Part shown: piece after piece, positions 764-15,947 of the stretch | How positions within the stretch are numbered: position 1 is the first letter of the stretch | Layout of the letters: every line of letters starts with the position of its first letter | Assembly (NCBI GenBank): GCA_041677685.1 | Contig: JBAYPN010000013.1 | Coordinates: forward strand, 1-20,429 | Length of the DNA stretch: 20,429 nucleotides | Reading direction: 5' to 3' | From: an archaeon | GTDB lineage: Archaea > Iainarchaeota > Iainarchaeia > Iainarchaeales > CSSED10-239 | Program-made: the position numbers and the translations under genes | Notes under the pieces: generated by a model | The model's input: only the letters and a program-made list of their open reading frames with translations | Told to the model about the DNA's origin: nothing | Database searches by the model: none

Positions 764-1234
764 TTATTCCTCCAGAACAATAACTTCAATGTTTGTAGAC
801 TTTGATTCTCTTTGTTTTCCGCCAATTCTTCCTTGTGGTTGAGTTTTTCTTCTTGTAAGTCCTAAATTTGCATACATGTGGATTATTCTTAATTTAGTAA
901 CATCTAAATTTTTATCCTCAGCATTAGACTTTACGTCTTCTAAAAGTAAACCAACCTCTTTTGCTACATTGATTGGCCATCTACCAGTTGGAGTAAATCT
1001 TTTTGTTTGCCCTTTTCTATGAGCAACTTTTAATCTATATTTTACTAATGGTAAAAAGTCTTTTTTCTCTTTAATGTCGTTTGCAATTTTTATAGCTTTA
1101 GACAACATCATACCATTAAAGTAATTACAAAATTCTACAGAATATTTTGTAGAGATCTTTGCATTAGACTTGTATGCTTTTGCAATTCTTTTTTCATCAA
1201 CTTTTTTTTGAAAATTATAATTTATTGTAGTCAT
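764..1234 (-). CDS. rpl22: 50S ribosomal protein L22 (uL22)
   Basis: 156 aa. Archaeal L22-like sequence: AKISTKYSVEFCNYFNGMMLSKAI...KVAHRKGQ...GRWPINVAKEV. Lies between S19 and S3. Confidence 0.93.
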   Translation of the reverse strand: MTTINYNFQKKVDEKRIAKAYKSNAKISTKYSVEFCNYFNGMMLSKAIKIANDIKEKKDFLPLVKYRLKVAHRKGQTKRFTPTGRWPINVAKEVGLLLEDVKSNAEDKNLDVTKLRIIHMYANLGLTRRKTQPQGRIGGKQRESKSTNIEVIVLEE

Positions 1235-1248
1235 AATATTCTACCGCT

Positions 1249-1650
1249 TTACTTTCTTTCACTTATAGCAGTACTTGATTTTGTAGCACCAATACCTGCT
1301 TTTCCGTGTGTTAATCTTTTTCTAGTTAATACAAATTCACCTAAATAATGTCCAATCATCTCAGGCATAATAACAACTGGTTTAAACTCTTTACCACTAT
1401 ACACATAGATGGTTTTGTCAACCATCTTAGGAGTAACTATAGTGTCTCTTTTATGAGTCCTTATAGTCTTGTGATTTTGTAAATCTTTTTCAATTCTTTG
1501 ATAAAAAGGATCACTTTCATTTCTTTTTAAATTTCTTTTAGCTCTTGAGTTTGTTAGTTCAGAAAATTCCTTTAAAGACATTTTCTTTAGTTCTTCTAAG
1601 GTTTTTCCTCTATATCTAAAATCTGTATTTTCATCCATAACTAATATCAC
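1249..1650 (-). CDS. rps19: 30S ribosomal protein S19 (uS19)
   Basis: Contains FRYRGKTLEELKKMSLKEFSEL and GKEFKPVVIMPEMIGHYLGEFVLTRKRLTHGKAGIGATKSS. The track start at 1650 is GTG. An in-frame ATG at 1638 (MDENTDF...) is an alternative start. Confidence 0.93.
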   Translation of the reverse strand: MILVMDENTDFRYRGKTLEELKKMSLKEFSELTNSRAKRNLKRNESDPFYQRIEKDLQNHKTIRTHKRDTIVTPKMVDKTIYVYSGKEFKPVVIMPEMIGHYLGEFVLTRKRLTHGKAGIGATKSSTAISERK

Positions 1651-1651
1651 A

Positions 1652-2356
1652 TTATTTCTTCTTTCTACCAGTTCTTGTTGATGCTATTGCACCTACTTTT
1701 CTACCTGAAGGAGCATGTCTTGAAGTAGACTTAGAATGCCCAACATGATGTTGAAATCCACCAAATGGGTGGTCAACAGGATTCATAGCAACTCCTCTAA
1801 CTCTTGGATAAGGTTTACCTTTAGCTTTCATAGCATGGAACTTATTTCCAGCAGTAACAAATGGTTTACTTGTTCTTCCTGATGCTGCAACAAAACCAAT
1901 AGTTGCTCTTGCATTTAATGGAAAGGACTTTATTTTTCCTGATGCCATTTTTACAAGAACTTTATCTTTTCTACTAACTAAAGTTGCAGAACCACCAGTT
2001 GCTCTTATAAATTTTCCACCATCTCCAAAATTTCTTTCAATATTAAAGATTTGTGTTCCTGGGGAGATTTCATCTAAAAATAAAACATTACCAACTCTTT
2101 GGGCAGCACCTCTTCCAAACTCAACCTTGTCTCCAGTCTTAATTCCATTTGCACAAACTAAATTTTCAAAAGTACCATCACTTAAAAGAACTTTTGCAAC
2201 AGGAGCAGACCTGATTGGATCTGTGTACAATTCAATAACTTGACCTTTTACTAGTCCCTCATATTGTGAATATCTAATATCTACTTTGGCATTAAGTGTT
2301 GCTTTATATTTTGGAGAACCCTTTCCCCTTCTTTGTGATTTTAGTCTTCTTCCCAT
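1652..2356 (-). CDS. rpl2: 50S ribosomal protein L2 (uL2)
   Basis: 234 aa. MGRRLKSQRRGKGSPKYK...GVAMNPVDHPFGGFQHHVGHSKSTSRHAPSGRKVG is a canonical L2 C-terminus. Confidence 0.97.
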   Translation of the reverse strand: MGRRLKSQRRGKGSPKYKATLNAKVDIRYSQYEGLVKGQVIELYTDPIRSAPVAKVLLSDGTFENLVCANGIKTGDKVEFGRGAAQRVGNVLFLDEISPGTQIFNIERNFGDGGKFIRATGGSATLVSRKDKVLVKMASGKIKSFPLNARATIGFVAASGRTSKPFVTAGNKFHAMKAKGKPYPRVRGVAMNPVDHPFGGFQHHVGHSKSTSRHAPSGRKVGAIASTRTGRKKK

Positions 2357-2379
2357 AACAAAAACCTTAATTTATAAAT

Positions 2380-2655
2380 TTATAATACTCCTAATTTGTT
2401 TGCTACATCTTGAGCATTAGAAGTCTTAGCAAGAGTTACTAGTGCTTTTTTTCTATTTTTTCTGTCAAGTAAAACATTTACTGACTTTACCTTAACAGCA
2501 TACATTTTCTCAACTGCTTCTTTAATTTCTTTCTTATTAGCTTTCTTATTTACTATAAAAGTTAATCTGTTAGCTGTAGATATCAAGTCAACTGCTTTTT
2601 CTGTAATCACAGGATATTCTACAACATCATAAAATTCTAATTTTTTTGAAACCAT
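2380..2655 (-). CDS. rpl23: 50S ribosomal protein L23 (uL23)
   Basis: 91 aa. VVEYPVITEKAVDLISTANRLTFIVNKKANKKEIKEAVEKMYAVKVKSVNVL. Lies between L4 and L2. Confidence 0.9.
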   Translation of the reverse strand: MVSKKLEFYDVVEYPVITEKAVDLISTANRLTFIVNKKANKKEIKEAVEKMYAVKVKSVNVLLDRKNRKKALVTLAKTSNAQDVANKLGVL

Positions 2656-2656
2656 T

Positions 2657-3472
2657 TTAAATCACCTTAGAGAATCTCTCATTTAATTTCTCAATTGCGT
2701 TCTCTGTAAAGATTGTAAGTCTACCTGCATGTGTTCCAGGAGCAAGTTCTTTGATTGATAATTGTCTTGCTGAAACAACATCAACACCTTCAAGATTACC
2801 AATTGCTTTATGATTTTTGTTATCTCCTAAAACAACAAGTATACTTTTTCTTCTCTTATATCTTCTTCCTCTACCCTTTCCTTTTCCTGCTCTAATTGTT
2901 TTAGTTTCTTTTGCTCTTAGAATAGAGTCAGATAATCCAATTTTTTCTAATAGTTCAAAAACTTCTTTAGTTTTTACAAAGCTTTCAAACTTGTTATCAA
3001 TAATTATTGGAAAAGTTAGGTTTTCTGGAAGAGAATTACTTCTTAAACTAACTAAACTTAAATTTGCAGTTGCTGAAATTGCACTCAAGATTGCTTTTGT
3101 TCTTTCTTTTGAGTTGATCTTTTTTACTAAGATTTTTGCAACCTTTGGAGGATGTGCTCTTGGTCCACCAACAGCTTGGGAGATACCTGCAACCCTACCA
3201 GCCATCAAAGCACTTCTATTTTTTAATCTTGGAAGTCTTGCTTTACCAGTATTGATTGAAACGTTCATTTTGTTTGGTTTTCTAACACCCCTGTATTCAG
3301 CAGTATTTAATCTGTTTGAATATGGAGAGATTCCTTTTTTCTGATAAGATTTACTTTGAGAAGATATTACTGCTCTCTTTATCAGATCAGGTCTATATAT
3401 TTGTTCAAAGTAAGTAGGAAGTTCAATTTCCTTAATTATTTTCCCTTCTAAATTATAAACATTTGTTTTCAT
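2657..3472 (-). CDS. rpl4: 50S ribosomal protein L4 (uL4)
   Basis: MKTNVYNLEGKIIKEIELP... and RAGKGKGRGRRYKRRKSILVV are typical of archaeal L4. The track ORF begins at TTG 3487. In-frame ATGs at 3481 and 3472 are more likely starts. I chose 3472 because MKTNVYNLEG resembles archaeal L4 N-termini. Confidence 0.9.
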   Translation of the reverse strand: MKTNVYNLEGKIIKEIELPTYFEQIYRPDLIKRAVISSQSKSYQKKGISPYSNRLNTAEYRGVRKPNKMNVSINTGKARLPRLKNRSALMAGRVAGISQAVGGPRAHPPKVAKILVKKINSKERTKAILSAISATANLSLVSLRSNSLPENLTFPIIIDNKFESFVKTKEVFELLEKIGLSDSILRAKETKTIRAGKGKGRGRRYKRRKSILVVLGDNKNHKAIGNLEGVDVVSARQLSIKELAPGTHAGRLTIFTENAIEKLNERFSKVI

Positions 3473-3483
3473 AATAATCATTC

Positions 3484-4458
3484 TCAAATTATTTTAATAT
3501 CAGTTAGTTCTGTTTTACTTTTGTTTGGTCTTATAGCATCCCTAATAACAACAACTCTTTTAATAGAGCCAGGAACAGATCCAGAAACTACAGCATAATT
3601 GTTTTTAACAAGTCCATAGTTTGTAAATCCACCTTTTGGGTTTATCTTTGGATCATTACTAACAATTAATAGCTTTTTATTAAAAGTAGTTCTGTTGTGA
3701 AAACCATGTTGTCCAGCTCTTGGAACAGTGTACATTACAGTTGATGGGTTCCATGGCCCAATTGACCCAACATGCCTTTGTATCTGTTGAGCCTTTGGTC
3801 TTAAAATCTTAATTCCAAATCTTTTAACAGGACCAGTAAAACCATGTCCTTTAGTTACAGATTTTACATCTAAATAGGTGTCAATTTTAAAAACATCTTT
3901 AAAAGAAATAGTTTTTAAAAAATTTTCTTTCAAGTAATCAATTTTTGCTTGGTAAGTGCCTGAAAGTGGAACTTCAAAAATTATTGGTTTTTTTTGACCA
4001 GTAGAAGTCTTACTTTCATCCAAATATGCAATCAATGTTAAGTTAGAGGCTTTATCTTTACCTTCTATAAATTTATCAAGTTCAATTTTTTTTGTAGATT
4101 TTTTACCTTTTATTTTTCTAGAAACAAGATTATCAAAACTAATAAATTCATCTACAGTTGATTTTCCAAAGACAACATCATTATCCTTATAAAATCTAGC
4201 ACCAATTATCTTCAAATCAGGAGTTTCAATTATAGAGACAGGAACTGCAATTTCTTGACCATAGCTTGAAGAATTTTTATGGGCATTCTTTGCAAGTACT
4301 TGTGACATACCCACCTTTACTCCAAAGAAACAAAGAGGTTTTACTTCTCCCTTAGAGTCTTGATTTAAAAAATATTTATATTTTGGAACAATTGATTTTG
4401 CTCTTACTCTTGGATAAAAAGCCATTGACCCGGCTCTTGGTTTATATTTTCTAGGCAT
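3484..4458 (-). CDS. rpl3: 50S ribosomal protein L3 (uL3), first gene of the operon
   Basis: 324 aa. MPRKYKPRAGSMAFYPRVRA...TKGHGFTGPVKRFGIKILRPKAQQIQRHVGSIGPWNPSTVMYTVPRAGQHGFHNRT. Confidence 0.95.
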   Translation of the reverse strand: MPRKYKPRAGSMAFYPRVRAKSIVPKYKYFLNQDSKGEVKPLCFFGVKVGMSQVLAKNAHKNSSSYGQEIAVPVSIIETPDLKIIGARFYKDNDVVFGKSTVDEFISFDNLVSRKIKGKKSTKKIELDKFIEGKDKASNLTLIAYLDESKTSTGQKKPIIFEVPLSGTYQAKIDYLKENFLKTISFKDVFKIDTYLDVKSVTKGHGFTGPVKRFGIKILRPKAQQIQRHVGSIGPWNPSTVMYTVPRAGQHGFHNRTTFNKKLLIVSNDPKINPKGGFTNYGLVKNNYAVVSGSVPGSIKRVVVIRDAIRPNKSKTELTDIKII

Positions 4459-4756: not shown

Positions 4757-7402
4757 CTAAATTAAGTCTTCTCCCTTCCCTTTTTTCTTACTATTTTTAA
4801 AAATTACTTTTCCAGTATAAAAGATTACAAGAACAAATAACAAAATTAAAATAATTGATTTTATAGAGTTGCCCACACTATTAAAATTAAATAACCCAGT
4901 TATATAAAAATTCTTTTTAGAATCTAAAGTAATCTCTTTTGAAACAAGCAAAGATCCTGTCAAAGAATCAACAACTTTTAAAGTAGCTAAATAATTTGAG
5001 GATAGATCTTGATTAGAAAAAATTCTTAATTCAGAATCCACAAAGCTATTTGCAGGAACAACAATATTTCTATCTCCCTCAATTGTGAAATTTAAAGGTA
5101 ACTCTAAATCTAAATTTACACCTTTACTAACATCAGTATTATTTGATAACTTTAATTTAATTAAGTGAGAGGCAAACTTGTTATCATCACCAATTGTAGG
5201 AAAACTACTTGAAATCCTACTAGTTTGCACATCTAAAGAGATATCTTCATTTCCCACAACACTTTTAATAACTGTTGAAACTTTTGATATAACTTTATTG
5301 TCTACAACCACCTCAAAATCAACTGTCTTTTCTGTCTCACTATTTAGGTAACTGTCAGGTACACTAAATAAATAATTGATTTTTTTAATTTCTTTTCCTT
5401 CTATTATAAAGTCCTCTGTATAACTTAAATTACCCAGTTTTTCTTTAATATTAATTTCTGATTGGCTATTATAAATGTTCCAATCGTTTGGCAAACCTTT
5501 TACAACTAATTTAAATTCAGTTCCAACTTTATTTTCATTCTCAAGACTTACACTTGTAAGTATCTTGTTTTTAGAAATTAAAAAACTTGAAGGAAAGGAT
5601 GTAAAATTAATTTTATATTCATCTGCTTGATCAGGGGTTGATAAAACTAAATCAGTAAAGTATATTTCTTCTGAACAGCCCTCCAATTGAACTGCATAGT
5701 AGATCTTTTTAGAGGATCCAAAATTACTTGTAATTATGTTTCTAGAAATTGAATCATTTCCAGTTAAGAGAATTGAGGTAGTATTGAGTGTCAGACCATC
5801 TGAATATAATCTAATTATCCCTTTTTTATTTGTTTTGTTTTTAAAATTTAAATTGAAATTTAATTTAGGGTCGTCATTTGTTATTAGCTTAGAAGGGTAA
5901 TTTAAAATAAAATCACAAGAATTATTTTCATTGTCAGGATCAAAAATATTTGATTTTTCTAAAAAAAATCTTCCAACATAAGTGTCTGTATAATCACAAA
6001 AAGAACCATCTTGAAATTTACCTTTTAAAAGTAAATTAAAAAAACCATCTAAAGTTCCATTTACTCCAACTGTAATAACTTCACTAGAGTTTGCTTTTAT
6101 CTTTTTAGAGTCATCAACAACATTTACATTTACGCCTCTTCTGTTATCTACAAAAAAACCATCAGCAGTAAAGTCCATAGAGGTGTTGTTATAAACAACA
6201 ATTGTGTTTTCTCCATTTTCCACTCTTTGGCTTTCAAAACCAATAGATGAACATCTATTTTTTCCATCTAAAATATTTATTTTAAAATCAGAACTTATGT
6301 CTGAGTAAGTACAAGTTTTACCATTTTCAAAAGAACCAGTTAATGATATTTTACCAATTACTTTTTCTAAAGTTTCTACAGAAGAAGTGTCTAGAGTAAA
6401 GTTAATAAAACTTTTAAAGGTTGGTAAAAGAGAACTGTTGTTTAGTGACTTTTTAGTAATGTTTACAAATCTTGAATTGTCAGAAATGTTTATAAAATTA
6501 ATATTAAATTTTTTATTAGAATTGTTAATAACATAAAAACCATCTTCAGAAGAATAATCTTTAGAAGAATTTTCTAATTGTGAAATTGTTGATGTTTGGA
6601 TAACTATACCTTGACAATCTAAATCTTGAGAGCTATTTTCTAAATGGTCAAGGACTTTAATCTTAATTGGTTCTCTTAATACACAACGTTTGTCTTCTCT
6701 ACCTTCCCTTACCATGTAACCTTTAACATAAAGTTCTGACTTTTCAGTTTTGGAGTTATCAACTTTTTTAGAACTAACTCTTAACTTTATGTCTTTAGAT
6801 TCATCAAGATTTATTTTTCTTGGAAAATAACTTACTTGTGCATCATAGATTGAAGTGTCTTTTATTTTTGCTTCTTCAATTTTAAAATCATAATCTAAGG
6901 AAATATTTTTCAATTGTACATCAAAGGATTTCCAATCATCTTCATCCATTACAAAATCTGTGTTTTCAAATCTTAAATCTGAACAATTCGCAGTACTTTT
7001 GTTTTCTTTATTTTTAATATGGTAGTTTACTGTGTATTCTTTTTCACAAACTAAGTCCCCATATTTTCCTACAAGGTAGATATCAAAAAAAGAAGAAGTA
7101 TCTGAACTAACAGTATCAGAGGTAAAAAATAAATCTGCACTTCTTGTGGAGTAAGAGGGCACTGTAAAGGGATAGTTGATGTTATCTAAATCAAGATCAT
7201 TTAAAGGACCAGTAGTTATAGAGATTAAACTTAAAGGTTCCTCAATTGAATTCATAATAAAAAGATCATAAACAAAAGATCTGTCTTCATCAACATAGAT
7301 GTCAGTTTGTCCAGAGATTGAAAAGTCTGAACAATCAATTGCAATTATGTTTGCTGATAAAAAAATTATTACAAAAAATACTATAAAAAATTTATAATTC
7401 AT
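4757..7402 (-). CDS. Large secreted, membrane-anchored surface protein (S-layer/adhesin-like) built from Cys-bracketed repeat modules
   Basis: 881 aa. N-terminal signal-like helix MNYKFFIVFFVIIFLSANIIA. C-terminal TM SIILILLFVLVIFYTGKVIF followed by a basic tail KNSKKKGKG. By my hand count there are more than 20 N-x-S/T sequons. GGGAGAAGGGG sits just upstream of the ATG. Confidence 0.7.
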   Translation of the reverse strand: MNYKFFIVFFVIIFLSANIIAIDCSDFSISGQTDIYVDEDRSFVYDLFIMNSIEEPLSLISITTGPLNDLDLDNINYPFTVPSYSTRSADLFFTSDTVSSDTSSFFDIYLVGKYGDLVCEKEYTVNYHIKNKENKSTANCSDLRFENTDFVMDEDDWKSFDVQLKNISLDYDFKIEEAKIKDTSIYDAQVSYFPRKINLDESKDIKLRVSSKKVDNSKTEKSELYVKGYMVREGREDKRCVLREPIKIKVLDHLENSSQDLDCQGIVIQTSTISQLENSSKDYSSEDGFYVINNSNKKFNINFINISDNSRFVNITKKSLNNSSLLPTFKSFINFTLDTSSVETLEKVIGKISLTGSFENGKTCTYSDISSDFKINILDGKNRCSSIGFESQRVENGENTIVVYNNTSMDFTADGFFVDNRRGVNVNVVDDSKKIKANSSEVITVGVNGTLDGFFNLLLKGKFQDGSFCDYTDTYVGRFFLEKSNIFDPDNENNSCDFILNYPSKLITNDDPKLNFNLNFKNKTNKKGIIRLYSDGLTLNTTSILLTGNDSISRNIITSNFGSSKKIYYAVQLEGCSEEIYFTDLVLSTPDQADEYKINFTSFPSSFLISKNKILTSVSLENENKVGTEFKLVVKGLPNDWNIYNSQSEINIKEKLGNLSYTEDFIIEGKEIKKINYLFSVPDSYLNSETEKTVDFEVVVDNKVISKVSTVIKSVVGNEDISLDVQTSRISSSFPTIGDDNKFASHLIKLKLSNNTDVSKGVNLDLELPLNFTIEGDRNIVVPANSFVDSELRIFSNQDLSSNYLATLKVVDSLTGSLLVSKEITLDSKKNFYITGLFNFNSVGNSIKSIILILLFVLVIFYTGKVIFKNSKKKGKGEDLI

Positions 7403-7452
7403 AAAATAACCCCTTCTCCCAAAAATGAAAAAACTTTTTTAAAAATAAAAAA

Positions 7453-7821
7453 CTACTGCCAACTAAAAGTAAAGGCAGAATTGTCAACAACCATAGATAA
7501 GTTGTTTGGGTAATATCTATAAGTTGGATATGAGTATGAATAATAGGTTGTTGGGTAACCTGAATAAGTAGTCATACCAGTATATGGATTTACAGAATTG
7601 TAATATGGATTATAATAGTAGTTATTGTATGGATTGTAATAGTAGTTATTGTAGTAACTATCATATTGATTTACATAATTATAAGTGTAAGGGTAAGCAT
7701 ATGGATAATAACCAACATATGAATAGGAAGCATCTGTTATGTCAAAACTTCCTGCTGAAATTGTACCAAACAACGCTAAAAAAGAAACTAATCCAAATAA
7801 TATTAATATTTTTTTATTCAT
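7453..7821 (-). CDS. Secreted tyrosine/asparagine/proline-rich low-complexity protein
   Basis: 122 aa. Signal peptide MNKKILILFGLVSFLALFGTISA, then a core with about 31 Tyr in about 75 residues (YYPYAYPYTYNY...YNNYYYNPYNNYYYNPYYN). AGGGAGGA lies 8 nt upstream of the ATG. The stop is 50 nt upstream of the 881-aa gene on the same strand. Confidence 0.65.
   Translation of the reverse strand: MNKKILILFGLVSFLALFGTISAGSFDITDASYSYVGYYPYAYPYTYNYVNQYDSYYNNYYYNPYNNYYYNPYYNSVNPYTGMTTYSGYPTTYYSYSYPTYRYYPNNLSMVVDNSAFTFSWQ
7607..7654. repeat. 24-bp tandem duplication (22/24 identical) inside the Tyr-rich gene, encoding YNNYYYNP twice
   Basis: ggattataatagtagttattgtat (7607-7630) versus ggattgtaatagtagttattgtag (7631-7654). 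Confidence 0.85.
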
Positions 7822-7981
7822 AATAAATTCCTCCCTTTTTAGTTTTATATATTAAGTGACAAATAGTTTATAAAGGTATTTAATTAAGTAACTGAAGATA
7901 ATTACAGATACTTAAAAAAAGGTAAGGCTTTAAAAATATTCTATAATATATTTTATAGAAGGAACAACCAAGGTTATTTTT

Positions 7982-8368
7982 ATGGCAGACGAATCATCAG
8001 GAATATATCAGGATATTAAGGCATTACAGTCAAGCATATTGGTACTTAGACAAAAGATAAAATATCTAGTGCATAATGAAAAAATCCTTGGTAGAAACAT
8101 ATTAATCTTAAATAAAAAAATTGCATCTAAGACTACAAACAACAATTCTCAGAGTAGCCTCTCTGATGCTAAAGTTACAGAGATCTTAGAAAAGATAAAC
8201 AACATTGAATCTAAAATAAAAAATATTGAATCAAGTCTAGAGTTGTTTAGTAGAAGGTATGCAAAGGTAGATGACCTTAAGGAAATGAAATACATAATTG
8301 ATAACATCAATCCTTTAGAATACACAACAATTGAACAAGTAAAAAAATTAATTAAAGAAAATAAATAA
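7982..8368 (+). CDS. Hypothetical coiled-coil protein
   Basis: 128 aa. Heptad-like stretches (IKALQSSILVLRQKIKYL; EILEKINNIESKIKNIESSLELF) flank an N/S-rich linker. I recognise no family. Confidence 0.5.
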   Translation: MADESSGIYQDIKALQSSILVLRQKIKYLVHNEKILGRNILILNKKIASKTTNNNSQSSLSDAKVTEILEKINNIESKIKNIESSLELFSRRYAKVDDLKEMKYIIDNINPLEYTTIEQVKKLIKENK

Positions 8369-8371
8369 AAA

Positions 8372-8917
8372 CTATTTTTTAGAATTTAAGAAAAACCAAT
8401 AAGTTCCAAGAACAATTATTATTAAAAATAATCTAAATAAAAAGCCATGCACAAAATTTGCAAAGGAAAGATTAAATCTTACAATAATAAATGAAGTTAA
8501 ACTTATTCTGATTATGTTAAAGACAATCACAATTAATGTTGAGAAAAAAACCCACGTTAGTTTCTTTTTAATAGAGACACCAATTGTTGCAATGATTGCT
8601 GAGACAAGAATACTAAACTCTAAGATGCCTGTGCATAGGTTGGTTATTATAATTGGATAACTTAAACTTGAAACCTCAATAATTGAATTGTTAATTAGAA
8701 AATAAAATTTAGAATCAATTCCAAAAACAGAATTTAAAATGAAATTAGAAAGACTTCCAAAAAAGTAATTTATGTAATTGTAAATAATTGGAATATTTAG
8801 AAATAAATAAACTAAAGAAAAAGAAATTAAAAAAAATAAAAGAAAATTATAAGATGACCTTACTTTCTTTTTATTCTTTAAATCTGATTTTAAATTTTTT
8901 AAAAATTTATTAAACAT
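8372..8917 (-). CDS. Minimal exosortase/archaeosortase-family membrane protein (putative transpeptidase)
   Basis: 181 aa and polytopic. Three motifs occur in the order expected for the exosortase/archaeosortase core: ITNLC95TGILEF (Cys), FNIIR137ISL (Arg), FVH157GFLF (His). Each lies at a predicted helix end. The Cys-to-Arg spacing is 42 aa. The ATG is 8 nt after the rps8e stop, preceded by GAAGG. Confidence 0.6.
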   Translation of the reverse strand: MFNKFLKNLKSDLKNKKKVRSSYNFLLFFLISFSLVYLFLNIPIIYNYINYFFGSLSNFILNSVFGIDSKFYFLINNSIIEVSSLSYPIIITNLCTGILEFSILVSAIIATIGVSIKKKLTWVFFSTLIVIVFNIIRISLTSFIIVRFNLSFANFVHGFLFRLFLIIIVLGTYWFFLNSKK

Positions 8918-8925
8918 GCCTTCTT

Positions 8926-9321
8926 TTATTTTATTAAAATTGCAGAGATTTGTCCTGATTGCCCTGGTCTAGAAGTTACTTTTGCACTCTGTTCTTTACC
9001 ATCAATCTCAACTTTTATAATTGCACCTTTGGTTATTACCTTTTGTCTAACAAAGTGTTTGTTTGCAGAATTTTCTACAACATTTAAAATTTTTGCTTTA
9101 ACTGTTTTTGTAGAGTCTGAAACAATTGCAGTTTGTGCTTTTGCAATCTTTACTTTCTGGTTACCACCAATTGTTCTAACCTTGTATATCTTTTGATTAT
9201 CATCAACTACTGTTTTTGAAAAGGTTCCACCTCTGTCACTTAAAGATTTTGTTTTTGCATTAACAGAATTATTAATTCCACCAGTTGCTTTTCTTCTTGA
9301 TTTTTTTTTCCATTCAACCAT
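8926..9321 (-). CDS. rps8e: 30S ribosomal protein S8e (eS8)
   Basis: 131 aa. MVEWKKKSRRKATGG...KVRTIGGNQKVKIAKAQTAIV...VITKGAIIKVEIDGKEQSAKVTSRPGQSG. GGTGAT lies 5 nt upstream of the ATG. Confidence 0.9.
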   Translation of the reverse strand: MVEWKKKSRRKATGGINNSVNAKTKSLSDRGGTFSKTVVDDNQKIYKVRTIGGNQKVKIAKAQTAIVSDSTKTVKAKILNVVENSANKHFVRQKVITKGAIIKVEIDGKEQSAKVTSRPGQSGQISAILIK

Positions 9322-9346
9322 TTTTGATCACCATCATCTTAAAACA

Positions 9347-9361
9347 TTTTATAAATTTATA
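9347..9361. promoter_or_regulatory. Near-palindromic TATA element (TTTTATAAATTTATA) shared by the divergent rps8e and Cgi121-like genes
   Basis: It is the only TATA-like element in the 56-bp divergent spacer. It lies 26-40 nt from the rps8e ATG (9321) and 17-31 nt from the ATG at 9378. Confidence 0.35.
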
Positions 9362-9377
9362 GATTAAATATATATTA

Positions 9378-9908
9378 ATGAAAACATACATTTTTAAAAC
9401 TAATAAAAAGAGCTATTTTCTAAACATAATATATTGCTCTATAGATATTAATGATATAGAAAACTATTTAAAAAGAATTGAAAGAGCAAAAAAATCTCAA
9501 AAATCAAAAACTAACCTAATAGTTATTCCAAACTACAAAATATTTAGTTTAGAACAACTTAAATGGGCTGTCTTTGTTGCAAAGAACAAGTTTCTGGAGA
9601 AAATTAATGTTTCTAAAAGCTTATGGAATGAGATTATTCTTACTTTGTGTGCAACAGATCAAATTAATAGAATTTCTAAAAATTGGTTTTTAAAAAATGG
9701 AAATAATAAGAATGTGTTTTTAATTACCTTGTCAGAAAATAAAATTGACTCTAAAGAGATTAATAAAATTAAAAAGGAATTGGGTATAGAAGAAATTAAA
9801 ATAAATGAAATTGAATTTAATAAAAAAGAAGTTCTTGAACTTTATAAAATTTCTGATGTAGGTTTAGATGCAGATGTAGAGAATAAAGTTATAGAGAAGA
9901 TGTCTTAA
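9378..9908 (+). CDS. cgi121: KEOPS complex subunit Cgi121-like protein
   Basis: 176 aa. The central segment NVSKSLWNEIILTLCATDQINRISKNWFLKNGNNKNVFLITL resembles the archaeal Cgi121 core (xSKSxxxEILxxxSGxxQIxxAI...G...vxLI), recalled from memory of MJ0187-type sequences. The N-terminal 50 aa are not informative. Confidence 0.5.
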   Translation: MKTYIFKTNKKSYFLNIIYCSIDINDIENYLKRIERAKKSQKSKTNLIVIPNYKIFSLEQLKWAVFVAKNKFLEKINVSKSLWNEIILTLCATDQINRISKNWFLKNGNNKNVFLITLSENKIDSKEINKIKKELGIEEIKINEIEFNKKEVLELYKISDVGLDADVENKVIEKMS

Positions 9909-10015
9909 TCTAAATTTTTAGTTGATTAAAAAATTGTCTTGATCTTAATTTTTTTATGATTTGAATTTTATCTTAATTTTAATTTGAAAATAAAATCAAA
10001 GTTCTAAAATAAAAA

Positions 10016-10705
10016 TTAAAGCTCTTTACAATCCCCAAAAGTTCTTTCAAACAAATATTTTAATTTTGTTGCTGTCTTTGGACCAAGCTTAGAAACCTTC
10101 TGTAAGTCTTCTACACTTGCGTTTGCAACATTTTTAATTGTTTTAAAATGATTTAAAATTGACTTGGCAAGAGTTGGACCAATGTCAGGGAAAGACTCTA
10201 AAATAAACAATTGTCTTTTTGAAAAGTTCATTTTGGTTTTTGAATATCTTACTTTAAAAGAACGATTCCCATTTCCAAGTTGTTCTCTTTTAGAAATTAT
10301 GTAAAGATATTCTGCAGTTTCTTTTTGATTTTTTGTGAAGAAAACTGGAATCTTATAATTTAGACCAATTGTTGTTATTAGGCTGATTATTGCATTTTTA
10401 TTTATTCTACTTTTATTATTTTTAATTAAATTAAAATCTCCTTCAATAATTAAACAGGGTTTTGGAATTTTTAAAAGATCTTGTAATTGAGAAAATATTC
10501 TACCATCAATGATTGAAGCTTCAAGATCAGAAAGAGTCTTTCTCTCAATAACAATTTCGTTAGTGATTTGATAGTCCCCAACTTTCAATTGCTCTAAGGT
10601 TACACACACATCAACTTCTTCTGATTTTAGATTTCTTAATTCTAAGATAACTTGACTTGCAAGCTCTCTTTGATCACAAACAACTGTTATTTTTTTTGAA
10701 CTCAT
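10016..10705 (-). CDS. xpf: ERCC4-family structure-specific endonuclease (XPF/Hef nuclease domain plus tandem HhH)
   Basis: 229 aa. VVCDQRE, then GDYQITNEIVIERKTLSDLEASIIDGRIFSQL (the GDxn-ERKxxxD signature). The C-terminus has (HhH)2-like FPDIGPTLAKSILNHF...LQKVSKLGPKTATKL. Confidence 0.85.
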   Translation of the reverse strand: MSSKKITVVCDQRELASQVILELRNLKSEEVDVCVTLEQLKVGDYQITNEIVIERKTLSDLEASIIDGRIFSQLQDLLKIPKPCLIIEGDFNLIKNNKSRINKNAIISLITTIGLNYKIPVFFTKNQKETAEYLYIISKREQLGNGNRSFKVRYSKTKMNFSKRQLFILESFPDIGPTLAKSILNHFKTIKNVANASVEDLQKVSKLGPKTATKLKYLFERTFGDCKEL

Positions 10706-10732
10706 GTAATTATCACTTTAAAAAGAGCATTT

Positions 10733-11194
10733 TTAAATTAATTTTTTTCTAATTATCCCACCAGAAAATAAACCCCTGTAAATAGTTTTTCCCTTATAAT
10801 CAACATATTCTTTTCCTGAAAATCTATTAACATCTCCTAGGCTTTGGGAAAAATATTCTAAATTATTTTCTTTATAATAGTTGGGGCCTCTTAAAGGAGA
10901 TCTGTTTTCTATTTTTAAAAGTGCAGATTTTAAAAAAGAATAAACTTCTTTTTCAAAAATTTCTGATTGTAAGACCTCTCCAAAATAATTTAAACCCCAA
11001 ATACAATTATTATTTTCAAAAACAATCTCTTGACCAATAAATGGATTATATCCATAATATCTATCTACATACTTATAATTATCCTGTTCGTAGACTAATT
11101 CTTTTGACCCATCTTTATTTAAAAAATCAGTTAGTCTAGAGGAAGCATAAGTATTCTTTTTTGCAATTACTAGAAAATCTATAAAGCTAATCAT
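10733..11194 (-). CDS. DUF5680-like protein of unknown function
   Basis: 153 aa. The pattern AKKNTYAS...YKYVDRYYGYNPFIGQEIVF...IWGLNYFGEV...FLKSALL...PLRGPNYY...FSGKEYVDYKGKTIYRGLFSGGII matches my recollection of the DUF5680 family. This needs an HMM check. Confidence 0.45.
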   Translation of the reverse strand: MISFIDFLVIAKKNTYASSRLTDFLNKDGSKELVYEQDNYKYVDRYYGYNPFIGQEIVFENNNCIWGLNYFGEVLQSEIFEKEVYSFLKSALLKIENRSPLRGPNYYKENNLEYFSQSLGDVNRFSGKEYVDYKGKTIYRGLFSGGIIRKKLI

Positions 11195-11236
11195 CTTTTA
11201 TTTTACCTCACAAATTTTTTATTTTAAAACATATAG

Positions 11237-12811
11237 TTATTTAAAAAAATCATTTAAAGTACTTTGTGATTTTTTTTTGCGTGGCTTGTAGGTGTGGTAA
11301 TTTTTTAAAACAGATTTCATTTTTTTTTCTTTATTGATTGATACCCAATAATAATGTTCATCAATTGTGTCTTTGTTTAATAATAAAATTACTTTGCCAA
11401 CACTAAACCTTCCTGTTCGCCCTCTTCTCTGAATAGCTCTTATCTCTGAAGCTACAGCATCATAAAAAATAACTAAGTCTACAGAAGGAATGTCTAAACC
11501 TTCTTCACCTACAGAAGTACACACAAGAGCATTAAACACACCTTTCTTAAAATCTGAAATAATTTCAATTTGTTCTTTTTGACTTAATCCTTTATCTGCT
11601 TGACTACGAGTTGCTTGTCCAACAAATCGTGTGCTTTTAATTAATTTATTTTTATTTAAGATTGAGACAAGATGATTTGCTGTGTCTCTAAAGTTATTAA
11701 AAATTAGGATTCTAGATTTTGGATTATCTTTAATGTAATTTTCTAAAATATTTAATAATAATTTGTCTTTTGAATAGACCTCTTTATTATTTAATAATAA
11801 TTTATAAACTTCAAGAATCTCTTTTGAGTTAACAAAATTTTTTAAAGTCAATTTTGCCTTAGGAAGTTTACTTTCCAAAAATAAATTATCAATATAATTT
11901 TTAAGAGGTAAAAAACCCTGGGTTTCAATTAACTCTTTTGCATGATAGACCTTTAGGATAAGTGTAATGTTTGCAATTCCTAAAAAAAGAATATTGTTTT
12001 TATTTTTTTTAAGTCTTTCAAAAATCTGAGCTTGGACCATCAGCATTTGTTTTTTTGTGTAGTTGGAAGGAATTTTTAAATTTAGTTTTCTTAAAAAAGA
12101 AATCTTTTTTTCAATAAATTCAGTAAAGATTTTAGATATTTGTTTAGAGGTGTTGTCTAGTTCTGTAAAGATAGTTTCTATATCAACACCTTTTACAAAG
12201 TCAACGACGTCAAGATCATCTTCAGTTCTAATCTCTATATGATTTACTTTTAAGTTATTTGCAACTTCTTCAATTTTTTGTCTGTTCCCTCCAGGAGAAG
12301 CAGTCAATGCAAGTCTTTTAATCTCTCTAGGAAAAAACGAAGAGATGTTTACATATGCATAATCTCCAATTGCCCTATGGGCTTCATCAAAAATAATTAA
12401 ATTAAAATCATTAAAATTAATTAATTTAAATTTAATGTCATTGTTAATTGTTTGTGGGGTTGCGCAAATTATTCTCCCTAAGTTTTTATAAATTTCTTTT
12501 CTTTTATTTTTTGGAACTTGTCCAGTAAGAAGAATAATGTTTTCTTCTTCAATATTTAAAAGTTTATCTAAAGACCTTTTATGTTGAACAACTAAAGGTT
12601 TAGTTGGAGCTAAAAATAGAATGTTTTTTTTAAAAGAATAAGTGTGAGCAATTAATAGTACAGCAACAATTGTTTTACCTAAGCCTGTGGGAGCAACAAC
12701 CAATGTAGAGTCATCAATAGCCTTAGCAGTTAACAATTCTTGATAAAGTCTTTTTTGAACACTCCTTGGTTTTATAAATTTATGTTCAATATATTCTATA
12801 TTTTCTTGCAT
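11237..12811 (-). CDS. hef: Hef/FANCM-type SF2 DEAH-box helicase (helicase half only)
   Basis: 524 aa. Motif I VAPTGLGKT, motif II FDEAHRAIGDYAY, motif III LTASPG, motif VI IQRRGRTGR. A helical insertion lies between the RecA lobes, as in Hef. Confidence 0.85.
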   Translation of the reverse strand: MQENIEYIEHKFIKPRSVQKRLYQELLTAKAIDDSTLVVAPTGLGKTIVAVLLIAHTYSFKKNILFLAPTKPLVVQHKRSLDKLLNIEEENIILLTGQVPKNKRKEIYKNLGRIICATPQTINNDIKFKLINFNDFNLIIFDEAHRAIGDYAYVNISSFFPREIKRLALTASPGGNRQKIEEVANNLKVNHIEIRTEDDLDVVDFVKGVDIETIFTELDNTSKQISKIFTEFIEKKISFLRKLNLKIPSNYTKKQMLMVQAQIFERLKKNKNNILFLGIANITLILKVYHAKELIETQGFLPLKNYIDNLFLESKLPKAKLTLKNFVNSKEILEVYKLLLNNKEVYSKDKLLLNILENYIKDNPKSRILIFNNFRDTANHLVSILNKNKLIKSTRFVGQATRSQADKGLSQKEQIEIISDFKKGVFNALVCTSVGEEGLDIPSVDLVIFYDAVASEIRAIQRRGRTGRFSVGKVILLLNKDTIDEHYYWVSINKEKKMKSVLKNYHTYKPRKKKSQSTLNDFFK

Positions 12812-13214: not shown

Positions 13215-13505
13215 TTAACCAAATAAAGAACCAAGACCTTCAGCAGCAGCTTCTTCAGTTACTTCTGGAACTTCTTCAACTTCTTCTTTCTTTTCAGCAG
13301 CAGCTTCAACTGGTGCAGATGCAACAGGCATAGATGCTTTTTCAATAGCTTCAGAAATATTAATTTCTTTTAAAGTTGCTACTAAACCTTTAATCTTTGC
13401 ATCATCAACAGCAATTCCTACTGCAGAAATTACACTTTTTAAATTATTCTCATTTATTTCTTTTTTTGCATTATGTAATAATAATGCTGCGTATATATAA
13501 TCCAT
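13215..13505 (-). CDS. rpl12: 50S ribosomal stalk protein P1 (L12e/aP1)
   Basis: [22 protein letters not shown]...[29 protein letters not shown]. The track start (GTG at 13514) is probably too far upstream. AGGTG lies 8 nt before the ATG at 13505. Confidence 0.93.
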
Positions 13506-13527
13506 AGAATTCACCTTTTTTTAATTT

Positions 13528-14301
13528 TTATTTTTTGTCTCCATTTTTATTATCAACTTCAGTTTGTAAAGCTTTTGCCTTCAATTCAGCCATCATTACC
13601 ATTGGTTCAATTGTCATCTTTGTAACATAACCAATTTCAACACCTAAATTAATTGAGCATCTTACAGCATTTATAAACTTATTATATACATCGTTAGAAT
13701 CAACATCTAAAACTTCCTTTGAATAAATTAAATTACCTTCCTTAATTCCAACAATGTTTAAAATTAATTCAAAAGGTTTTATGTCAAGTTTAGACAAAGT
13801 GTTTACAACATCCTTTGAAATTACTTCTCCAACTTTTGCAATAACAGCATCTTTAGTAACATAGATTGTAGGACCTTTAACTTGAACCTTGATTCCAACT
13901 TTTTTAAGATCAGAAAGTGCAGGTCCAGGAGGCAAACCAGTATCCCCTTCAGGAACAACAACATCAACAGTTGAAATCATTCCAATCTTTGCTTTAGATT
14001 TTGCTTTACTTTTTTTAATTTGTAGATATAGATCAAAAGCATTATCATTTGTTAAAATTAGTATAGGTTGATTTGGTAACTTCTCAGCTAAGTCTTTGTG
14101 ACCTTTTTCATCTAAAACTCTTTTTAACACATTCCTTTTTGTTACTTTAAATTTAACATCAGAAAGGTTCTTTTTTAATTTTTGAAGTAAATCTGTAGGA
14201 AAATTCTCTAAATCACCTATACCAATAATCTTGTAATCAGAAATTACTTTTGATAGTTCCTCAAATTGAGAAATTTTCCAATTTTTAAAATGCTTAGTCA
14301 T
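13528..14301 (-). CDS. rpl10: 50S ribosomal stalk protein P0 (uL10), short form
   Basis: 257 aa. The N-terminal uL10 domain and the inserted domain are recognisable (PPGPALSDLKKVGIKVQVKGPTIYV). Its ATG overlaps the L1 stop (ATGA), and GGAGGTG lies within the L1 3' end. Confidence 0.9.
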   Translation of the reverse strand: MTKHFKNWKISQFEELSKVISDYKIIGIGDLENFPTDLLQKLKKNLSDVKFKVTKRNVLKRVLDEKGHKDLAEKLPNQPILILTNDNAFDLYLQIKKSKAKSKAKIGMISTVDVVVPEGDTGLPPGPALSDLKKVGIKVQVKGPTIYVTKDAVIAKVGEVISKDVVNTLSKLDIKPFELILNIVGIKEGNLIYSKEVLDVDSNDVYNKFINAVRCSINLGVEIGYVTKMTIEPMVMMAELKAKALQTEVDNKNGDKK

Positions 14302-14957
14302 TTCTTTTCACCTCCAAGCTTATGGGGTGTGCTCATTGTAGTTTTAAAATAAATACTTTTTATGTTCTGTTTACCAGCAGGCAATTTCTCAATCAAAGAA
14401 TTATAAACAACCATTGTGTTTTCTGCTATCTTTACAGCATCTTGACTTCTTTTACCAATCTTAATCTGCATAGCAACTGATGATTTATTTTTTTTATTAG
14501 ACAAAACTACCTTTGATAACATTGACTTTAATATACTCTTTACAGCATCAGCATTTAATGGTGCTATTTGTGGCATTTTACCTTTTGGACTTAAACTTTG
14601 TCCTAAGAATTTTCCAACAACTAGCATTACTGAACCTTCTGCTAAAAACACATCAAACTCATTAGCAAGTTTTTTTGCATCTTTTTTAGAAATTTTAGAA
14701 ATCTCTTCTTCTACAATTACCTTATCAACTATTCCTTTCAATTGAACAGCAGCATCTTTATCTTTAGAAAAATAAACTGATCTTACTTTTGATAAAAATG
14801 GATTTGGTACAATTACAGAAAAATTATATCTATGGTCTTTATTTTTTATATTTAGATTTTTAAAAGTAATAATTAGCTCAACAGATTCATCAAAATTTCT
14901 TTTCTTTGCATCTGCAAACAAATCATTTACTGTTTTTTCTATTTGTTTTTTATCCAA
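14298..14957 (-). CDS. rpl1: 50S ribosomal protein L1 (uL1)
   Basis: DKKQIEKTVNDLFADAKKRNFDESVELIITFKNLNIK...SPKGKMPQ. The track ORF starts at GTG 14978, but GGAGGTG (14967-14973) lies inside that extension, 9 nt before an in-frame TTG at 14957. I take 14957 as the start. Confidence 0.9.
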   Translation of the reverse strand: MDKKQIEKTVNDLFADAKKRNFDESVELIITFKNLNIKNKDHRYNFSVIVPNPFLSKVRSVYFSKDKDAAVQLKGIVDKVIVEEEISKISKKDAKKLANEFDVFLAEGSVMLVVGKFLGQSLSPKGKMPQIAPLNADAVKSILKSMLSKVVLSNKKNKSSVAMQIKIGKRSQDAVKIAENTMVVYNSLIEKLPAGKQNIKSIYFKTTMSTPHKLGGEKK

Positions 14958-14966
14958 GATAACTTG

Positions 14967-14973
14967 CACCTCC
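14967..14973 (-). promoter_or_regulatory. Shine-Dalgarno site (GGAGGTG) for rpl1
   Basis: The plus strand reads cacctcc. A 9-nt spacer separates it from the TTG at 14957. Confidence 0.5.
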
Positions 14974-15104
14974 TGCACTTAGGCAGTTTTAACGGAAAAA
15001 TAAAGCTTCTTTTTAGAAAGAGCTATTATTAATACTTAAGTAATATATAATAGAAAATATTTAAAAAGGAAAGGTTTTTTCCACCTCTCTTTTCTAAACA
15101 AAAT

Positions 15105-15947
15105 CTATTTCAAATATTTTATTGCATTTATAAAAATTGCTTCTGAAAGACCAGGATTATAATTAAAATATAAAACCTTTCCTAAAAGCATTGGTTTTTC
15201 AACAATTGCAGGATAAGTCATTCCACTTCTTGCATCTACAAGATATGCAATCTCATTACCTTCAATTCCAACAGCAAAAGTTTCTGTTTGTAATAATCCA
15301 GCAGACTCTAATGCAGGAACTTTCTCAATACCATACATTATCCTATATCCACCTTGTTTACTATCAGACCTATTTGAATAAATAACACCTGACACCATTA
15401 ACTTTTGTTTACAACTAGGAATACTGTAGATTAAAGGATCACAAGTTACTGGAATTATGTCTCCAAAAGTAGCTTTCCAACCAATCACAGAAGGATCTCC
15501 TGTTCTTTCAATTCCAGAATTTAGAACAACAATTAATTTTCCACCTGCTTGAACAAAACCCTTAATTGCTTCACCAACAGTTCTAGTTATGGACTTGTCA
15601 GCACTTAAAGTTTGGTCAAGAATTATAATATCAAATGCCTTAAATGATTCTTTAGGATTATGTTGAACACTGTCTATTGTTCTAAATCTTAATTGCTTAA
15701 TTAAGTCTCTATTTCCTGCATCATTTAAAACTCTTATAAACTCTGGACTAGGAGAACCAAGCACCAAGATTGAGGTTCTTGAAGATTTAAAAATACCTTC
15801 ACTACTTGAAATTAAATTTGTTTTAAAAACAATTAAAAGTATAACCGCAACAATTATTATGATTGGGATAATACCTTCTAATTTTAATTTAGAACCAGAC
15901 TTTTTAACTGGTTCATCAGTCATGTCAAATGAATCGTCTTCTGCCAT
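15105..15947 (-). CDS. N-terminally membrane-anchored protein with a DUF1355/class-I-glutamine-amidotransferase-like extracytoplasmic domain
   Basis: 280 aa. A short acidic N-terminus is followed by the TM IIPIIIIVAVILLIVF. The pattern SILVLGSPSPEF...FDIIILDQ...GFVQAGGKLIVVLNSG...GDIIPV is reminiscent of DUF1355/ThuA-like folds. I see no Cys-His catalytic pair. Confidence 0.4.
   Translation of the reverse strand: MAEDDSFDMTDEPVKKSGSKLKLEGIIPIIIIVAVILLIVFKTNLISSSEGIFKSSRTSILVLGSPSPEFIRVLNDAGNRDLIKQLRFRTIDSVQHNPKESFKAFDIIILDQTLSADKSITRTVGEAIKGFVQAGGKLIVVLNSGIERTGDPSVIGWKATFGDIIPVTCDPLIYSIPSCKQKLMVSGVIYSNRSDSKQGGYRIMYGIEKVPALESAGLLQTETFAVGIEGNEIAYLVDARSGMTYPAIVEKPMLLGKVLYFNYNPGLSEAIFINAIKYLK

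Follow-up and report, generated by a model that had tools for sequence, protein, structure and literature searches.

A 20,429-nucleotide (nt) stretch of DNA from a member of the Iainarchaeota (contig JBAYPN010000013.1 of assembly GCA_041677685.1, positions 1 to 20,429 of the forward strand; hereafter the window) encodes a small membrane enzyme of the exosortase/archaeosortase family near a large secreted protein with a conserved sorting-type signal at its C terminus. On balance, we think it probable that this 181-amino-acid (aa) enzyme and the 881-aa surface protein form an archaeosortase/sorting-signal pair specific to the Iainarchaeota, a DPANN lineage, that operates through an undescribed, TGF-like signal. 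The pairing is a variant of a known protein-anchoring system, not a new kind of machine. A first-pass annotation of the window had grouped these two genes with a coiled-coil gene and a Tyr-rich gene in a self-contained surface-display module. All four open reading frames (ORFs) were confirmed by the ORF list, by public gene calls on identical contigs, which contain the same four products, and by their conservation in relatives, which marks them as real genes rather than chance ORFs. The genes and signal elements on which the argument turns are as follows.

8372-8917, minus strand: exosortase/archaeosortase-family enzyme, 181 aa
8633-8635, 8516-8518, 8507-8509, 8447-8449 and 8432-8434, minus strand: enzyme codons for Cys95, Asn134, Arg137, His157 and Arg162, respectively
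4757-7402, minus strand: secreted surface protein, 881 aa, candidate substrate
7337-7402, minus strand: N-terminal signal peptide (Sec type) at aa 1-22 of the 881-aa protein (MNYKFFIVFFVIIFLSANIIAI), read from the sequence (basic n-region, hydrophobic core, small-residue site)
4883-4903, minus strand: juxtamembrane motif ITGLFNF, aa 834-840
4811-4867, minus strand: hydrophobic transmembrane segment, aa 846-864 (hydrophobic run in the sequence; helix 843-872 in the structural model)
4772-4810, minus strand: basic cluster, aa 865-877 (KVIFKNSKKKGKG), with just four residues after it
7453-7821, minus strand: Tyr/Asn/Pro-rich secreted protein, 122 aa, 50 nt upstream of the 881-aa gene
7982-8368, plus strand: coiled-coil protein, 128 aa
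8926-9321, minus strand: ribosomal protein S8e (Pfam S8e, E = 4.9e-26; TIGR00307, 97 bits)

The assignment of the 181-aa protein to the exosortase/archaeosortase family is secure by profile comparison and already present in public annotation. With 40.3 bits (E = 3e-10) the protein clears the cutoff of 23 set for the family signature model TIGR04178, which all 106 sampled relatives match too, and NCBI names an identical protein 'exosortase/archaeosortase family protein'. The residues expected of a catalytic centre are also kept, and the hidden Markov model check upheld the first-pass description of the protein as exosortase/archaeosortase-like. An alignment of 30 close homologues shows no substitution at Cys95, Asn134, Arg137 or His157, and at least 90% conservation of Arg162; N134, R137 and H157 are likewise invariant across 106 diverse family members, at least 90% of which retain C95. 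The conserved Cys, Arg and His residues parallel Cys173, Arg214 and Arg253 of Haloferax volcanii ArtA, all three of which are essential (PMC9263693). An AlphaFold2 model of the enzyme (predicted local distance difference test (pLDDT) score, 96.7) contains five long helices and a small β-hairpin at residues 69-91. Hydrophobic segments in the sequence suggest a polytopic membrane protein, and hydropathy combined with the positions of basic loops would place Cys95, Arg137 and His157 on the outer side of the membrane. Searches of the PDB by sequence and by fold returned no solved relative.

Within the family, the enzyme reached the cutoff of no named subfamily; our statements on subfamily signals are based on reviews and on NCBIfam models. 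The archaeosortase D (ArtD) model TIGR04175 aligned with residues 24-177 at 28.8 bits against a cutoff of 125, and the heimdallarchaeosortase model NF045528 scored 11.7 bits against 130. Neither the ArtA model (TIGR04125) nor the pacearchaeosortase model (NF033505, cutoff 80) matched the enzyme at E ≤ 1. Among members of the enzyme family, the best match to NF033505 had an E value of 3.7e-13, and none was shown above its cutoff. The first-pass label 'mini' does not suit the protein: named subfamily models are 150-199 positions long, which makes 181 aa ordinary for the family, and a profile of its clade retrieves 590 representative clusters, nearly all of 160-220 aa. In two cases (P0099, 1102 aa, and locus L069, positions 8018-10393) the archaeosortase domain is fused to a non-membrane extension of ~700-900 aa.

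The C terminus of the 881-aa protein carries the evidence for a sorting signal. The first-pass annotation quoted this end correctly and recognized its tripartite form, which is conserved in 22 distinct orthologue tails. When these tails were aligned on the segment preceding the helix, all 22 displayed a short motif, a polar spacer of 5-6 residues, a hydrophobic helix of ~18 residues and a Lys/Arg cluster. Every tail also fits the residue classes of the consensus [LI]-[TSA]-[GA]-F-[FL]-x-[LF]. Counted over the 22 tails, position 0 is Thr in 14, Ser in 6 and Ala in 2; position +1 is Gly in 12 and Ala in 10; position +2 is Phe in 20 and Leu in 2; position +3 is Phe in 13, Leu in 8 and Met in 1; and position +5 is Leu in 13, Phe in 8 and Ile in 1. 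Position -1 is conserved too (Leu in 13, Ile in 5). Conservation is selective, as the top residue occurs in just 4-8 of the 22 tails at each of the 11 variable columns upstream (-12 to -2). In four lineages (loci L014, L017, L020 and L021) the orthologue stops right at FRKK, FRKR or FRRK, the canonical form of such an ending. A profile of the signal scored the orthologues at 27-56 bits and all other ORFs in 80 loci at 11 bits or less; the C-terminally anchored proteins that lack the signal by this measure include an 857-aa CHB_HEX_C/Fn3 protein of the same genome.

No described sorting-signal model accounts for these tails. The window tail had no match to PGF-CTERM, and for 20 orthologue tails scanned at E ≤ 10 PGF-CTERM is not among the matches listed (25 of 46 matched families). 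What those matches show is a weak, generic likeness, at E = 0.002-0.04, to models of the LPXTG anchor and of Loki-CTERM, Heimdall-CTERM and PEF-CTERM; the LPXTG anchor model gave a weak match in 10 of the 20 tails, with a best E value of 0.0017. Since no described model matches, we regard the signal as undescribed. The first-pass statement that the C terminus lacks any signature thus stands for described signatures but overlooked the conserved short motif. With T, S or A at position 0, followed by G or A and then F, and with Pro absent from position 0 in all 22 tails, the signal looks, by sequence, like a Thr/Ser-Gly/Ala-Phe version of Pro-Gly-Phe.

The rest of the 881-aa protein has the appearance of an extracellular glycoprotein. 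Pfam and NCBIfam contain no match to it, and a full-length sequence search, swamped by Ile/Leu-rich helices, returned 7 matches, all orthologues. Its AlphaFold2 model (pLDDT 73.5) comprises an N-terminal helix (residues 3-19, in the signal-peptide region), about seven all-β domains, a disordered stretch at 828-848 and the terminal helix 843-872. Foldseek matched this model to tandem immunoglobulin-like/MG-domain arrays with low global TM-scores, which indicates a generic string of β-sandwiches. Ten Cys residues form five evenly spaced pairs, invariant in orthologues, and N-x-S/T sequons number 23 against 14.6 expected, a 1.6-fold enrichment. Locus L080 (positions 1-2245), ~8-10 kb past the right end of the window, groups the genes for the oligosaccharyltransferase AglB/STT3 (itself ~10 kb away), a GT4-family glycosyl-phosphate transferase and a UbiA prenyltransferase, which constitute an N-glycosylation gene set in a reduced genome. 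The domains, Cys pairs and sequons, with AglB/STT3 nearby, fit an extracellular glycoprotein, and the 881-aa protein may possibly be the main, S-layer-like, envelope protein of the cell. Orthologues (L005, 8827-9400; L006, 6133-6700; L008, 8534-9100) bear an extra Tyr-rich N-terminal domain of ~150 aa that is absent from the window protein, as seen by comparison with 7337-7402; hhalign gave a probability of 73% for a weak resemblance between the first residues of this domain and those of the 122-aa Tyr-rich protein.

The two genes keep a constant relationship across the Iainarchaeota. In all relatives the order is S8e, enzyme, zero to two inserted genes, the opposite-strand coiled-coil gene, the Tyr-rich gene where present, the large-protein gene and L3. 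In every one the enzyme and large-protein genes lie on the same strand, 1-2.5 kb apart. The enzyme gene begins 8 nt behind S8e in the window, and relatives have gaps of 8-14 nt or a 4-nt overlap, so it is likely to be co-transcribed with the ribosomal protein gene. Because the enzyme gene adjoins S8e and the coiled-coil gene is on the opposite strand, the four genes are not one transcription unit, and the idea of a self-contained four-gene module is not supported as such.

Evidence independent of Iainarchaeota synteny comes from distant members of the enzyme family, 27-41% identical to the window enzyme, which have quite different neighbours. In about 17 of the 22 distant loci examined, the enzyme gene has downstream of it, within ~2 kb and mostly within ~1.5 kb, a same-strand gene whose product exceeds 800 aa and in most cases 2000 aa. 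In the closest outgroup (L044, 39% identity) the neighbour is a LamG/Calx-beta protein, complete at 1680 aa, with a helix and RKGQ at its C terminus. Given such unrelated contexts, an adjoining large surface-protein gene is a family-wide trait. A T2SSE-type ATPase of ~770 aa is encoded beside the enzyme in 22 of the distant loci, and a T2SSF-like membrane protein of ~780 aa is also beside it in 10. Loci L024 and L044-L079 share a cluster in which the T2SSF-like protein, the T2SSE ATPase and the small archaeosortase are followed by a giant ORF of more than 2000 aa (for example, L049, 2122-16519, and L047, 5472-16556); the giant ORFs carry CarboxypepD_reg domains, and the loci often encode large pilin-like proteins that bear QG|TIEYL-type signals as well. 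These loci have G+C contents of 29-59% and archaeal neighbours such as aCPSF1 and proteasome genes. The literature searched contains no description of an archaeosortase/T2SSE/T2SSF/giant-protein cluster.

The two remaining genes of the proposed module have a different standing. The coiled-coil protein, described as divergent in the first-pass annotation, is in fact the best conserved of the four, with 61-75% identity across lineages by BLAST and MAFFT, and 63-75% identity between the window protein and ten relatives. It is better kept than the enzyme, which is only ~50% identical in those lineages, and its terminal segments, QDIKALQSSILVL...HNEKILGRNILILNKK and LKEMKYIIDNINPLEYTT, are near-invariant. 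Profile searches of Pfam, NCBIfam and the PDB gave coiled-coil noise only. The protein has no signal peptide, its gene converges on the enzyme gene, and no link between it and the system was detectable; from its sequence it is probably an unrelated conserved cytoplasmic protein, and we do not count it in the system. The Tyr-rich 122-aa protein has a signal peptide and is 39-50% identical to its counterparts in three relatives, with 27 invariant positions, and it matched no family in Pfam, NCBIfam or PHROGs; the PHROGs search of the unknown window proteins returned nothing meaningful. Of the lineages that retain enzyme and large protein alike, about half gave no BLAST match to its gene. The Tyr-rich gene is an optional accessory neighbour.

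Since the tail of the 881-aa protein carries the conserved motif-helix-basic signal, the protein is the probable substrate of the enzyme, and a course of events can be proposed. The 881-aa protein would be exported through Sec by its N-terminal signal peptide and probably N-glycosylated, to form a chain of about seven disulfide-bonded β-sandwich domains on the cell surface. Its C-terminal helix would at first hold it in the membrane, with the basic cluster in the cytoplasm. The 181-aa enzyme would then recognize the juxtamembrane ITGLFNF at the outer membrane face, and Cys95, helped by Arg137 and His157/Arg162, would cut the chain at the motif. The helix and basic tail would be removed and the new C terminus passed to an acceptor, which for Haloferax ArtA is a membrane lipid. 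That this enzyme acts on the 881-aa protein, that cleavage occurs, what the acceptor is and how the active site is oriented are all predictions of this scheme.

Several observations weigh against such a pairing, and some of them suit an explanation by shared inheritance, in which the C-terminal helix holds the 881-aa protein permanently in the membrane as a type I protein, the real substrates of the enzyme are encoded elsewhere in the genome and the motif serves packing or oligomerization. The entire 20-kb region is syntenic among relatives, including Hef, Cgi121 and the ribosomal operons, so the adjacency of enzyme and large protein within the Iainarchaeota is not independent evidence; the first-pass expectation of a conserved neighbourhood was borne out, but the conservation is confounded by this macro-synteny. 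An opposite-strand gene separates the enzyme from its candidate substrate, and the two do not form one operon. Five lineages extend the orthologue by ~40-60 charged residues past the basic cluster (L005, 11800-11970; L011; L012; L015; L016; the window protein has no such extension). A conserved Q[IV]TLx[EQ]L[DE]-like motif closes most of these cytoplasmic tails, and that of L012 has a looser version, EVTFADVD; this suggests that the tail may have its own function and may be retained. No second carrier of the signal was seen in the 80 loci or in the ~40 kb of this genome inspected to define a sorting class. A search of 5.8 billion proteins with the signal profile (A7) was uninformative, as its 8000 candidates were swamped by Ile/Leu-rich helices and the orthologues were not returned. 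The distant loci end inside the giant-protein genes, the C termini of which lie beyond the sequence seen, and the motif itself could be conserved for structural reasons. We consider this explanation possible, though less probable than an enzyme-substrate pair. It leaves aside that the motif-helix-basic architecture is exactly of the sortase type, that four lineages stop at the basic cluster, that the motif is absent from other anchored proteins nearby and that distant family members adjoin large-protein genes in unrelated contexts. The long tails are themselves compatible with processing, as H. volcanii ArtA can process a signal with a further domain behind it (PMC6098224).

The ATPase, platform-like, pilin-like and giant CarboxypepD_reg proteins encoded in the distant loci raise another prospect, that the family works for type IV filaments or giant adhesins and not in sortase-like anchoring, and that the Iainarchaeota gene has merely been relocated beside S8e. 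We find this improbable: no Iainarchaeota locus has a gene for a T2SSE ATPase, a T2SSF-like protein, a pilin-like protein or a giant protein less than 10 kb from the enzyme gene, and the catalytic-type residues are identical in the two groups. The two roles are also compatible, as the enzyme could process the giant proteins. A different candidate partner is offered by the Tyr-rich protein, which is secreted and sits between enzyme and large protein in several lineages. It ends in FTFSWQ with neither a C-terminal helix nor a basic tail, however, and with no such anchor we rejected it as a sortase-type substrate; its absence from BLAST results in about half of the lineages that keep the other two genes likewise speaks against an obligatory partner. 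Either role is largely excluded by this architecture and strikes us as very improbable. The enzyme and the 881-aa protein remain the preferred pair.

To our knowledge, archaeosortase biology has been tested experimentally in Haloferax alone. A 2018 review placed archaeosortases in a subset of the Euryarchaeota, and in the literature searched no paper connects Diapherotrites, or pilus loci of DPANN, with archaeosortases or exosortases. The present enzyme, signal and candidate substrate make a concrete triple, open to testing, in a DPANN lineage whose genome is of ~0.8 Mb. If the pairing is right, it identifies the mode by which the probable main envelope protein of the Iainarchaeota is anchored, and in genomes so reduced the acceptor of the cleaved protein becomes a specific question. 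The new sorting-signal profile could be taken up by annotation resources. Related enzymes inside the type IV filament/giant-protein loci of other DPANN archaea may bear on how episymbionts build their attachment surfaces. A bolder generalization, which we regard as doubtful, would make small archaeosortases dedicated maturases across DPANN, with a lineage-specific C-terminal signal that ties each to a single large or giant surface protein. In the Iainarchaeota the enzyme beside S8e would then be paired with the TGF-type signal of the main envelope protein, and elsewhere in DPANN the enzyme would be built into type IV filament loci (ATPase, platform protein and pilin-like proteins) with proteins above 2000 aa as neighbours. 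Were that so, sortase-like processing would be coupled to the assembly of the symbionts' host-attachment apparatus.

The remainder of the window (G+C content ~27%) is archaeal and, by family searches of its proteins, holds mostly housekeeping genes, among them Cgi121, a Hef split into helicase and nuclease, and enolase. The first-pass suggestion of a DPANN-like archaeon was correct: relatives reached via the 181-aa protein include metagenome-assembled genomes of Ca. Iainarchaeum as well as Ca. Forterrea multitransposorum, which has a complete genome of 839,632 bp, and the identical sequence is present in several public assemblies, GCA_028702685.1 among them. Rfam and tRNA scans of the window were both empty. 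The other features considered are listed below.

764-4458, minus strand: ribosomal protein genes L3, L4, L23, L2, S19 and L22
10016-10705, minus strand: ERCC4/HhH nuclease part of Hef, a gene separate from the helicase part (joint span 10016-12811)
10733-11194: DUF5680 gene, between the Hef halves
11237-12811, minus strand: Hef helicase part
13215-14978: L1, L10 and P1 genes
15105-15947, minus strand: 280-aa protein with one N-terminal transmembrane helix
18515-20429, minus strand: second surface protein, 857 aa, at the right window edge

The DUF5680 gene occupies the same place in most relatives and went undetected in the loci of five. The 280-aa protein is 49-67% identical in relatives and has no family match. 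The 857-aa protein, complete in L080 (7291-9864), consists of repeated CHB_HEX_C_1/Fn3_assoc domains, a Gly/Ser/Pro linker, a transmembrane helix followed by KKKK and a charged cytoplasmic tail of ~85 aa; it has no TGF-like motif and scored 4.7 bits on the signal profile. One relative (L006, 2-2600) carries a diversity-generating retroelement, with bAvd and reverse transcriptase, next to Cgi121. Its 122-nt template/variable repeat pair (147-268 and 1224-1345) is 84% identical. We rejected the large surface protein as its target, as the variable repeat sits in a different, upstream gene.

The nearest experimentally studied counterpart is ArtA with its PGF-CTERM substrates. Both systems have a polytopic membrane enzyme of one superfamily with conserved Cys and Arg (PMC6098224, PMC9263693), and a large glycosylated surface protein as substrate, with a transmembrane helix between a short motif and a basic tail; here both the glycosylation and the role of substrate are predicted. 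The T/S-G/A-F of the Iainarchaeota tails is like P-G-F in composition and position. The systems differ in that the ArtA and PGF-CTERM models are unmatched here, the enzyme is of 181 aa, a polar spacer of 5-6 residues separates motif from helix and some orthologues are long-tailed; moreover, one candidate substrate has been found here so far, and it is encoded nearby.

Among named subfamilies archaeosortase D (TIGR04175) scores best and is of similar length (model, 150 positions), but 28.8 bits against 125 leaves the enzyme outside it. Pacearchaeosortase (NF033505), heimdallarchaeosortase with Heimdall-CTERM, and Loki-CTERM are lineage-specific small enzymes or signals curated from uncultured archaea, and indicate that such pairs recur; the weak matches of the present tails to Loki-CTERM and Heimdall-CTERM are far from significant. 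In bacteria, XrtJ with MSEP-CTERM is a dedicated one-enzyme, one-target exosortase system, the substrate of which is encoded close by. A single nearby substrate is what we propose here, with that status putative, whereas XrtJ-type systems are bacterial and use other signals. Sortase A of Gram-positive bacteria has an unrelated enzyme fold and recognizes an LPXTG motif absent from the Iainarchaeota tails, yet its logic is analogous: a motif, a helix and a basic tail, acted on by a Cys transpeptidase.

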